From positions 32,001-96,000 of the IMG/VR virus record IMGVR_UViG_3300025929_000014: a stretch of 64,000 nucleotides of DNA; one strand, written 5' to 3'. Of this stretch, positions 4,667 through 64,000 are shown piece by piece. A program made the position numbers and the translations under genes. The stretch's first letter is position 1, and the number at the start of each line of letters is the position of its first letter. The notes below the pieces were generated by a model, which was given only the letters and a program-made list of their open reading frames with translations, searched no databases and was not told the DNA's origin. The DNA is from a virus.

Positions 4667-4860
4667 CCCACGCCCCAGTCCTTGGCCTGCGCCATCGCCA
4701 AACGCCGTAGCTCCGGGTCGTCGATGTCAAGATCCAGCTGACACGCGCTGACGGCGAAGTCACACATGTCAAAGATGCAGGCTTTGCCGTGAATCACGTA
4801 TTCGTCCACGCCTTCGTCGGCCCAATAGGCTACCACTCTCTGCTTTGTCTCTGCGTCCAA
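4654..4860 (-). CDS. hypothetical protein
   Basis: TTG start with AAGGAGG RBS. Confidence 0.55.
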   Translation of the reverse strand: MDAETKQRVVAYWADEGVDEYVIHGKACIFDMCDFAVSACQLDLDIDDPELRRLAMAQAKDWGVGWCE

Positions 4861-62496: not shown

Positions 62497-62699
62497 TAGG
62501 TAGTGGGAGCGGGTTTGGGCAGCTCAAAGCCGCCAAAGAGACGCCGGCTGGAGGCTACCACGCGGCTCTTCTTGAGCGCCTCTGCGGTGGTGGAGGGAAT
62601 GGTCACCTCGCCGTTCTTATCGGCCGCGTAGTTCTTGTTGCCGAAGGACGTAACGCCGGTGCAGTTGGGCAGTTGGATCTGGACCTTCTCGTAGGTCAT
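62496..62699 (-). CDS. small virion protein
   Basis: start MTYEKV with GGAG RBS; TAATG coupling. Confidence 0.6.
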   Translation of the reverse strand: MTYEKVQIQLPNCTGVTSFGNKNYAADKNGEVTIPSTTAEALKKSRVVASSRRLFGGFELPKPAPTT

Positions 62700-62852
62700 G
62701 GGGGCGTTTCTCCGTAGGATTAGAGGGGGCCACAGGAGATGGAGGGAGCACACCTCCTGTGGGGGAGGAAGCGACGCGGGCGCAATCAGGTGGGAGGAGG
62801 AGGAGCCCCACGAGCGATCATCCGCGTCTAACACGGCGCCGCGCTATTGTTA

Positions 62853-62900
62853 AGTATACCACGTCCATATTGGCCTGTTTCATCCACGATGTGGTATGAT
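62853..62900. promoter_or_regulatory. back-to-back extended -10 promoters
   Basis: TGGTATACT on minus (62861-62853); TGGTATGAT on plus (62892-62900). Confidence 0.6.
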
Positions 62901-62919
62901 CATGGGGTGCGCAAGGGGA

Positions 62920-62994
62920 TGCTGATTGGTGTTCTGGGAACACAACCCGATATAAAGGGACGCCAGGTAGGTTCGATTCCTGCATCAGCAGCCA
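62920..62994 (+). tRNA. tRNA-like RNA 1, anticodon undetermined
   Basis: TGCTGAT/ATCAGCA acceptor, G-CCA, GTGT/ACAC D stem, GTAGG-TTCGATT-CCTGC; anticodon arm CCC-GATATAAA-GGG. Confidence 0.75.
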
Positions 62995-63021
62995 TGCGCG
63001 GCCGCACACCGCGCATGCACA

Positions 63022-63096
63022 GGATGGATAGCTCAGGGGTGAGAGCGCCGGATTCTAAACCGAAGGGCGCAGGTTCGAGTCCTGCTCCATTCGCCA
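63022..63096 (+). tRNA. tRNA-like RNA 2, loop readable as CTA (amber) or TCT (Arg)
   Basis: GGATGGA/TCCATTC acceptor, G-CCA, GCTC/GAGC, GCAGG-TTCGAGT-CCTGC; arm CGG-ATTCTAAA-CCG. Confidence 0.8.
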
Positions 63097-63198
63097 GTCT
63101 TGAGGCGGTGTGGTGTACGCTAACTAGGAATAAGGCACTGGGGAATGTCCTAGCATCTGGCCCCTAGCCTCGCAGGTTCGTATCCTGCCAAGACTGCA
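63096..63198 (+). tRNA. tRNA-like RNA 3, class II (Leu-like) body with 18-nt anticodon loop
   Basis: AGTCTTG/CAAGACT, GCG/CGC D stem, CTAGGA/TCCTAG, long variable region, GCAGG-TTCGTAT-CCTGC. Confidence 0.65.
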
Positions 63199-63202
63199 TA
63201 GA

Positions 63203-63239
63203 CAAAGAAGCCCGCATCACTACGATGCGGGCTTCTTTG
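63203..63239. terminator. probably bidirectional terminator
   Basis: perfect 16-bp stem CAAAGAAGCCCGCATC/GATGCGGGCTTCTTTG. Confidence 0.75.
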
Positions 63240-63253
63240 CGCGCTCAACATAG

Positions 63254-63394
63254 ACGCTGCCCGCTCATCGTTTGGTTGAGAGACCGCGTTATTGATGAGC
63301 GGGCAGCGTGCCGTAACCGGCAAGGTGGAGTATGGGCGTGCGGGGCGTACCTGTCACGTTCTACAGGGCATGCGTAATGCCCTGTAGAACGTGA
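63254..63394. repeat. two long perfect hairpins
   Basis: 16-bp stem 63254-63309; 18-bp stem 63354-63394. Confidence 0.8.
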
Positions 63395-63397
63395 TGC

Positions 63398-64000
63398 CTA
63401 TGAGATGCTGAAGCCCAGGAGGACAGCATTGATAAGCGGCAGGTAACAGAGCAGAGCCCCGTTATTGCGGATCTCCACCGGCCAGTTGGGGTCGGTTGGC
63501 GGATAGTCAAGTTCGAGATAGTCATAGACCCACTCGCTCGACCACACGCTCGGAATATCCGAGCCGGGATACCAGTTCGGCATCTTGCTGGAGAGCATGA
63601 CCATCACGCCCTGGGGCAGGGTCGGGTGGACGCGCACGTCGCACAGCGTACCGGTCACGCCGTTGGTCAGCCGGCTCACACGGAAGTTACCGACTGCCTG
63701 GTTCGGGGAGCCTTCCGGCTGCACGAAGAAGGGGGTAGAGGCCAGTGAGCGGTTGATGACCAGCGCCTCAGCCTGGTTGATCAGGATCATGTCCGGGTCG
63801 CCCTTGGCGGCACCCCACACCAGCCCGAAGGTGGTGTCGATGTCGCTCGGCGCCGACGCCGAACCCATGTACAGACCGAGCGGATTGCCCGACGTATTCA
63901 GGTTCAGATTCTTCTGGAACACGGTCGCGCCGGAGTTGGCGGCCAGCAACTGCTGGATGATGCCCGGATAGGCGCGCGAGTCGGACGAGGTGTTGCCGGA
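63398..64000 (-). CDS. major capsid protein, C-terminal part
   Basis: frame open to window edge; GDPDMILIN, VRVHPTLPQG; upstream of adaptor. Confidence 0.75.
   Translation of the reverse strand, partial: SGNTSSDSRAYPGIIQQLLAANSGATVFQKNLNLNTSGNPLGLYMGSASAPSDIDTTFGLVWGAAKGDPDMILINQAEALVINRSLASTPFFVQPEGSPNQAVGNFRVSRLTNGVTGTLCDVRVHPTLPQGVMVMLSSKMPNWYPGSDIPSVWSSEWVYDYLELDYPPTDPNWPVEIRNNGALLCYLPLINAVLLGFSIS

Follow-up and report, generated by a model that had tools for sequence, protein, structure and literature searches.

At the end of a small gene cassette in a phage genome we found a tRNA-shaped unit, here called RNA3, that has 11 extra bases one base 3′ of its anticodon. The unit is the last of three tRNA-shaped units in the same orientation (RNA1, RNA2 and RNA3). 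The chances seem about even that RNA3 is a real RNA gene of tRNA origin whose unspliced product mimics a tRNA, being retained for its shape rather than for decoding, and is made from an inserted, self-contained cassette. The view that the 11 extra bases are a removable intron was not supported, and they do not look like one.

Genome setting of the cassette

The window, i.e. the whole stretch of 64,000 nucleotides that was analysed, corresponds to bases 32001-96000 of a 105,786-bp IMG/VR virus record (61% G+C), which was rated as complete by CheckV. The phage carries a tyrosine integrase gene and is thus probably temperate. The cassette lies in a 698-bp gap (62700-63397) flanked by two minus-strand head genes, and its own strand (plus) is opposite to theirs. 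On one side, the gene of a 510-aa capsid-like protein ends at 63398. This protein matched phrog_13692 (2e-74), and a distant homologue of it has the Pfam domain PF17236, which we take to be the SU10 major capsid family. On the other side, a 67-aa gene starts at 62699 and a head-tail adaptor gene comes after it. In a distant relative (L004), whose capsid protein is 41% identical to that of the phage, the homologue of the 67-aa gene (46% identity, E 7e-18) is found 152 nt past the capsid gene, with no tRNA between them. From this comparison, the content of the gap, and with it the tRNA-shaped cassette, is an insertion that separates the capsid gene from the head gene after it.

The features of the cassette are listed in Table 1. 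The candidate promoter was absent from the list of our consensus scan, which demands a -35 box. Similarly, the terminator-like hairpin was not in the output of a simple terminator scan; it resembled the Rfam Thr_leader terminator hairpin on both strands, below the threshold of that family. Two long perfect hairpins with stems of 16-17 bp (63254-63312 and 63344-63395) fill the space from this terminator to the stop codon of the capsid gene. Probably they terminate minus-strand transcription or are sites at which the capsid mRNA is processed.

Table 1. Positions of the features of the tRNA-shaped cassette in the window.
Feature	Position	Strand	Description
Candidate extended -10 promoter	62892..62900	+	TGgTATGAT, ~20 nt upstream of RNA1; putative, read from the sequence
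RNA1, tRNA-like unit with encoded CCA	62920..62994	+	3-bp CCC/GGG anticodon stem closing the 8-nt loop GATATAAA
RNA2, tRNA with encoded CCA	63022..63096	+	Anticodon arm one base short; 8-nt loop ATTCTAAA (UCU or CUA)
RNA3, tRNA-like RNA, putatively derived from tRNA-Leu(AAG)	63096..63198	+	Discriminator G63196, then CA
RNA3 D arm	63105..63120	+	GCG 63105-63107 / CGC 63118-63120; 10-nt loop GTGTGGTGTA containing GG
RNA3 anticodon-like arm	63124..63153	+	CTAGGA 63124-63129 / TCCTAG 63148-63153 enclosing 18 nt
11 extra bases of RNA3	63136..63146	+	CACTGGGGAAT, at the 37/38 position
RNA3 variable region	63154..63171	+	18 nt; 4-bp CTGG/CTAG hairpin or 3′ strand of the long arm
RNA3 T arm	63172..63188	+	GCAGG-TTCGTAT-CCTGC; stem identical to that of RNA2; position 58 T, not A
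Terminator-like hairpin, bidirectional	63204..63239	.	12-bp GAAGCCCGCATC stem, A run before and T run after; ends the cassette

By every sign, the host seems to be bacterial. This is read from the encoded CCA of RNA1 and RNA2, the hairpin terminators, and the capsid relatives in phages of bacteria, namely Thermoanaerobacterium, Alicyclobacillus and Brevundimonas. The integrase had only distant homologues of mixed origin, which did not indicate the host. A partial tRNA-like element (G000:C1:7417-7485; L002 1500-1568) lies outside the window, about 1.1 kb from the integrase ORF (G000:C1:8600-9796, minus strand). Its T arm is good and a CCA is present, but the acceptor pairs imperfectly, with one wobble and one mismatch. 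The 5′ arms are poor, and the element scored 17.5 bits with Rfam. This element is probably the attP copy of the 3′ end of a host tRNA, and it could identify the host. RNA3 was itself considered as attP and rejected: both acceptor strands are present and it is ~87 kb from the integrase.

The three units are not chance structures

We scanned both strands of the genome (105,786 bp) for a 5-bp stem with a TTC-loop, followed directly by a 7-nt strand whose complement lies 40-95 nt upstream. Exactly three places had this geometry. They were RNA1, RNA2 and RNA3, all adjacent, while the mean over twenty Markov-shuffled genomes was 0.3 per genome. Thus, the acceptor plus T-arm framing of the three units is non-random.

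Standard tRNA detectors passed only RNA2 among the three. It scored 54.9 bits with Rfam RF00005, position 39 being deleted in the alignment, and was called tRNA-???(ct) by ARAGORN. RNA1 had a weak match to the Rfam tRNA-Sec family (17.9 bits) and an ARAGORN call, tRNA-?(Ile|Tyr)(at), at a lowered threshold only. RNA3 was unmatched by RF00005 even at E<=10 in a 701-nt search (gathering threshold, 29-bit). ARAGORN found it only in intron mode at the 80% threshold, as "Ala(agc) with a 22-nt intron". When the 11 bases were removed, ARAGORN called Leu(aag) at the relaxed 95% threshold only, and the default threshold rejected it. We also made 1385 arbitrary deletions in RNA3: 128 of them gave tRNA calls at the default threshold and none of these was Leu(aag). 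Such a scan is too permissive, so no particular "intron" is singled out by it.

Both neighbours have sound helices and T arms. Each has an anticodon stem of three G:C pairs around an 8-nt loop (GAUAUAAA in RNA1 and AUUCUAAA in RNA2). In all three units, the anticodon loop is defective on its 3′ side. The arms of RNA1 and RNA2 can also be described as a 27/43 mismatch, three G:C pairs and an 8-nt loop, from which RNA2 could present UCU, CUA or UCUA. Only one viral contig shared the acceptor and D arm of RNA2. It is a high-GC contig (L007, IMGVR_UViG_3300036859_000020), and its tRNA at 4708-4785 on the minus strand is also abnormal, with a 7-bp anticodon stem and the loop UACUGGU with A33 (ARAGORN Gln(ctg), Rfam 46 bits).

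The anticodons implied for the three units, UAU, UCU and AAG, fit rare codons of the phage, which uses ATA for 8% of its Ile codons, AGA for 4% of its Arg codons and CTT for 6% of its Leu codons. Phage-supplied tRNAs usually show such a match, and it suggests that the units had real tRNA ancestors. Four-base decoding by RNA1 or RNA2 was tried and rejected. Genes did not continue in the +1 frame after TAGA or TATA more often than expected, and the phage uses TAG as an ordinary stop (28/100 ORFs).

Structure and folding of RNA3

The two acceptor strands of RNA3, AGTCTTG (63096-63102) and CAAGACT (63189-63195), form 7/7 Watson-Crick pairs. The T stem forms 5/5 around the T-loop, and altogether 21 of the 21 canonical stem pairs are intact, with none mismatched. 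An earlier note on this DNA had described the GCG/CGC D stem, the 11-nt insert, the potential CTGGGG/CCCTAG pairing and the base shared with RNA2; every one of these sequence statements was correct. ATAAGG (63130-63135) occupies positions 32-37, with AAG as the anticodon, and without the 11 bases the loop would read A-T-AAG-G-G.

Other positions depart from the rules for conserved tRNA positions (PMC7609411). The usual U8, A14 and A58 are replaced by A8, U14 and U58, although the GG of the D loop is retained. The connector from the D stem to the anticodon stem has three bases, compared with one normally. In place of a 5-bp anticodon stem with a 7-nt U33 loop, RNA3 has a stem of 6 bp that encloses 18 nt or, in the alternative fold, a long arm of 44 nt. 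The base at the discriminator position is G63196 and not A73. In tRNA-Leu, A73 is the discriminator and an identity element for LeuRS.

A63096 is both the first base of RNA3 and the last base of the CCA encoded by RNA2 (ARAGORN 63022-63096). This 1-nt overlap, from which the earlier note took it that the two mature forms may compete, is real; the competition is not required. If RNase P cut 5′ of A63096, RNA2 would end in CC and could be completed by a CCA-adding enzyme of the host. The overlap would then be an ordinary outcome of tight packing. We also observed that C63095, the second C of the CCA of RNA2, can pair with the discriminator G63196, which gives an acceptor helix of 8 bp in the precursor and could move the cleavage site of RNase P.

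The centre of RNA3 can fold in more than one way. For its 51 nt, ViennaRNA gave a long-arm fold of -32.2 kcal/mol versus -24.9 kcal/mol for the class-II cloverleaf, and the helix probabilities were 0.8 for the long arm versus 0.003 for the cloverleaf. The long arm is built from 63124-63128/63163-63167, AGG/UCU and 63138-63143/63148-63153 with an AAUG closing loop. In this fold, CCTAG (63163-63167) of the variable region pairs with 63124-63128, CCUC is a 4-nt variable loop and the AAG triplet is paired. The inserted bases can join helices with either 63148-63153 or 63162-63167. As isolated duplexes, CTGGGG (63138-63143) with CCCTAG (63162-63167) has -7.7 kcal/mol and the CTAGGA/TCCTAG stem has -6.6 kcal/mol. 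In competition with the long arm, the 4-bp CTGG/CTAG variable hairpin is possible at an ensemble probability of 0.0001. Little weight should go to the preference for the long arm by energy, as a canonical phage tRNA-Leu (that of contig L006, see below) was also misfolded by minimum free energy.

A direct repeat is present in this region, CCTAGCATC (63149-63157) and CCTAGCCTC (63163-63171), 14 nt apart, and it offers two 3′ partners for the CTAGG strand of RNA3. A 9-nt repeat of this kind occurs about as often as chance gives. TRF found no tandem repeat, which leaves an origin of the insert by tandem duplication unsupported; together with the chance level of the 9-nt repeat, this led us to reject that origin. 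In a search for antisense targets of RNA3 in the phage, we found only chance-level 11-mers, none from the insert.

A canonical relative of RNA3

To trace the ancestry of RNA3, we used a pattern made of its acceptor stem and a generic T loop only, leaving the anticodon out. Among 2.9 million viral contigs (IMG/VR), one other contig matched, and among 185,579 prokaryote species genomes none did. The match, at 5648-5730 of contig L006 (IMGVR_UViG_3300021399_000685), is a canonical tRNA-Leu of class II whose anticodon, AAG, is followed by G37. It has the loop UUAAGGA, A73 and a "-CA" tail, and scored 53.8 bits with the Rfam tRNA family.

The two RNAs share an identical acceptor (AGUCUUG/CAAGACU), the 3-bp D stem, the GG loop, U33-AAG-G37, the long variable region and an N73 followed by CA, not CCA. 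They differ in that L006 has a 7-nt anticodon loop, U8, A14, A58, A73 and an Rfam hit, whereas RNA3 has 11 extra nucleotides, A8, U14, U58, G73 and two extra connector bases. As the anticodon was not part of the search pattern, the L006 tRNA independently supports the U33-AAG-G37 reading of RNA3, and AAG is the anticodon that the earlier note had obtained by removing the 11 nt. Its label of RNA3 as Leu-like holds in that the relative is a canonical tRNA-Leu(AAG), but fails at the discriminator, which is G63196 and not A.

Outside the imposed pattern, the identity between RNA3 and the L006 tRNA is ~50%, so this one-contig link is a lead of moderate weight. It suggests that RNA3 has diverged from a class-II tRNA-Leu(AAG) of a phage, and it would put RNA3 into a lineage of tRNA-Leu(AAG) that is phage-only and has an unusual A1-U72 stem.

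Other searches added little to this. A blastn search of INPHARED with the cassette returned generic T-arm matches only. Scans of IMG/VR with the adaptor protein, with a 12-member capsid alignment, with the T arm plus acceptor strand of RNA3 and with the RNA3 loop found nothing, and neither did a scan of GTDB genomes with the capsid alignment. A metagenome scan revealed two distant capsid loci (L004 and L005), neither with a tRNA. Closer capsid homologues were P0002 (85% identity) and P0003 (64% identity).

The extra bases as an intron

The earlier note had proposed that RNA3 matures by cleavage and ligation around the 11 bases. It placed them correctly, at the 37/38 position, which is the canonical position of archaeal and eukaryal tRNA introns (PMC4090602). 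As in archaeal and eukaryal pre-tRNAs, which have a bulge-helix-bulge (BHB) and are processed by EndA/TSEN with RtcB or Trl1 (PMC4090602), the extra sequence of RNA3 lies one base 3′ of the anticodon. However, RNA3 has no BHB, the phage has neither the endonuclease nor RtcB, and the host appears bacterial. In a BHB, two 3-nt bulges at the splice sites have a 4-bp helix between them. We found no BHB in RNA3: AUAA (63130-63133) faces GGGA (63141-63144), with at most one wobble pair. In the phage genome, no tRNA splicing endonuclease (PF01974), RtcB (PF01139), Pnkp-type kinase/phosphatase or CCA-adding enzyme was detected. To our knowledge, bacteria lack tRNA splicing machinery of the BHB type. 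Group I introns are the one kind of tRNA intron that we know to be established in bacteria. Those in tRNA-Leu (UAA), tRNA-fMet and tRNA-Ile occupy an anticodon-loop site, as the insert of RNA3 does, but they are self-splicing ribozymes of ~200 nt or more. A group I intron was ruled out for RNA3, since 11 nt is far too short for the P3-P9 core of such a ribozyme. The Rfam intron families did not match RNA3 either.

The same note had named the phage ligase (23983-25047) as the enzyme that would join the two halves. This protein has the domain PF09414 and a PHA02142 OB domain, and it is nearest to NgrRnl of Naegleria (PDB 5cot, 6vt9; E about 1e-12). The ligase, of the NgrRnl type with an N-terminal OB domain, stands alone in the genome, where no end-healing kinase or phosphatase was detectable. 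NgrRnl seals 3′-OH/5′-P nicks in duplex RNA and is not known to join the cyclic-phosphate/5′-OH ends left by tRNA nucleases. As a sealer of duplex nicks, the phage ligase does not fit the role that was proposed for it. In addition, the spliced product would still make a poor tRNA-Leu, judging from its lack of U8, A14, A58 and A73. Cleavage and ligation, with no BHB, no splicing or end-healing enzymes and such a product, was therefore not borne out as the route of maturation.

The "enigmatic introns" of Lak megaphage tRNAs (PMC6784885) also interrupt the anticodon region and belong to no known intron class. They differ in being conserved across phage genomes (PMC6784885), whereas the insert of RNA3 is 11 nt, is found in a single genome and sits in an altered tRNA core. 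As tRNA "introns" of Lak megaphages are already in print (PMC6784885), RNA3 is a small variation on a known theme.

Discussion

In the reading that we prefer, the 11 extra bases would be part of a remodelled anticodon arm, which could be an 18-nt loop or, by energy, a long irregular hairpin that buries AAG. The transcript would be cut by host RNase P and 3′-end processing enzymes, which would recognize the intact acceptor/T-arm minihelix. The product would be a stable RNA of ~100 nt that keeps the outline of a tRNA and is unable to decode, and it would probably not be charged by LeuRS. RNA1, RNA2 and RNA3 may act in a conflict over host nucleases that cut tRNAs, either as uncleavable stand-ins or as competitive decoys. 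The anticodon loops of RNA1 and RNA2 have lesions on their 3′ side, too, and for this reason such a conflict would be the likeliest role of the set. Phage tRNAs with changes in the anticodon loop have been proposed to escape VapC, PrrC and colicin D/E5 (PMC10264068), and the tRNA-Lys of T5 neutralises PARIS (PMC11464382). In these nuclease-escape phage tRNAs (PMC10264068, PMC11464382), as in RNA3, the anticodon loop, the target of the tRNases, is the deviant part. However, they keep a 7-nt loop and decode, while the loop of RNA3 is expanded beyond any known to decode. A role against host nucleases that cut 3′ of the anticodon is thus plausible, from the placement of the lesions and the published proposals on phage tRNAs.

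RNA3 might instead be a decaying pseudogene, an ex-tRNA-Leu(AAG) that lost its function through point changes and the insertion of 11 nt, and that now persists without a role or is at most a spacer for the 3′-end processing of RNA2. We consider this rather unlikely. A8, U14, U58, G73, the extra connector bases and the insert all depart from the consensus, and such a number of departures would also be in keeping with a gene that is being lost. Neither an Rfam hit of RNA3 nor, in the INPHARED blastn and IMG/VR scans, a relative showing its conservation was obtained, and the short direct repeats GGAAT and CCTAGC-TC that flank the insert suggest slippage or duplication. On the other hand, 4 of about 12 conserved unpaired positions have changed, and by a rough estimate neutral change at that rate would have caused about ten stem disruptions. 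None of the 21 stem pairs is mismatched, which makes neutral decay hard to reconcile with the stems. RNA3 also fits precisely between the CCA of RNA2 and the terminator, and random decay would not favour the confinement of the lesions of both neighbours to the same part of the molecule. It is improbable in our judgement that RNA3 decodes without splicing. For this, 63138-63143 of the insert would pair with 63162-63167 while the CTAGGA/TCCTAG stem is held, forming a pseudoknot with the 8-nt single strand ATAAGGCA. Both helices are possible by their energies as isolated duplexes. RNA1 and RNA2 have 8-nt loops as well, and the extension of this idea to them, giving three unusual decoders of triplets or of four bases, seems improbable to a similar degree. 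A functional 8-nt anticodon loop exists in the mitochondrial tRNA-Thr of yeast (PMC7609411), and the match of UAU, UCU and AAG to the rare ATA, AGA and CTT would suit decoders. However, the missing +1-frame excess after TAGA or TATA and the ordinary use of TAG as a stop speak against them, and charging by LeuRS is made unlikely by G73 and the altered core. We also know of no precedent for a pseudoknotted anticodon arm on the ribosome, which counts against an unspliced decoder.

A true intervening sequence seems to us very improbable. It would be cut out at 63135/63136 and 63146/63147, and the phage ligase or enzymes of the host would join the remaining parts into a tRNA-Leu(AAG) that reads CUU. 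In its favour, the insert starts exactly where 37/38 introns do (PMC4090602), U33-AAG-G37 has been preserved, a tRNA-Leu(AAG) is the nearest relative, and the phage has an RNA ligase. CTT is rare, at 6% of Leu, as is usual for the codons of phage-supplied tRNAs, and unexplained inserts are on record for other phage tRNA genes (PMC6784885). Against these points, no BHB can be drawn, the phage lacks the splicing endonuclease, RtcB and an end-healing kinase/phosphatase, and the host is bacterial by every sign. The ligase is a sealer of duplex nicks, 11 nt is far below the size of a group I intron, and the spliced form lacks U8, A14, A58 and A73 and is rejected by ARAGORN at the default threshold. 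We would give hardly any credence to the more general idea of a mini-intron at 37/38 that enzymes remove in a bacterial host, without a BHB and by an unknown cut-and-rejoin route. If true, it would be a third kind of tRNA splicing.

The useful result is thus mostly negative: RNA3 should not be annotated as an intron-bearing tRNA-Leu. A phage-only lineage of tRNA-Leu(AAG) with an A1-U72 acceptor stem, if the lead holds, would be a small new fact. Phage tRNA genes are now read as weapons against host enzymes that cut the anticodon loop, and the cassette would offer a compact natural test case for uncleavable or decoy phage tRNAs, or for odd-looped decoders.
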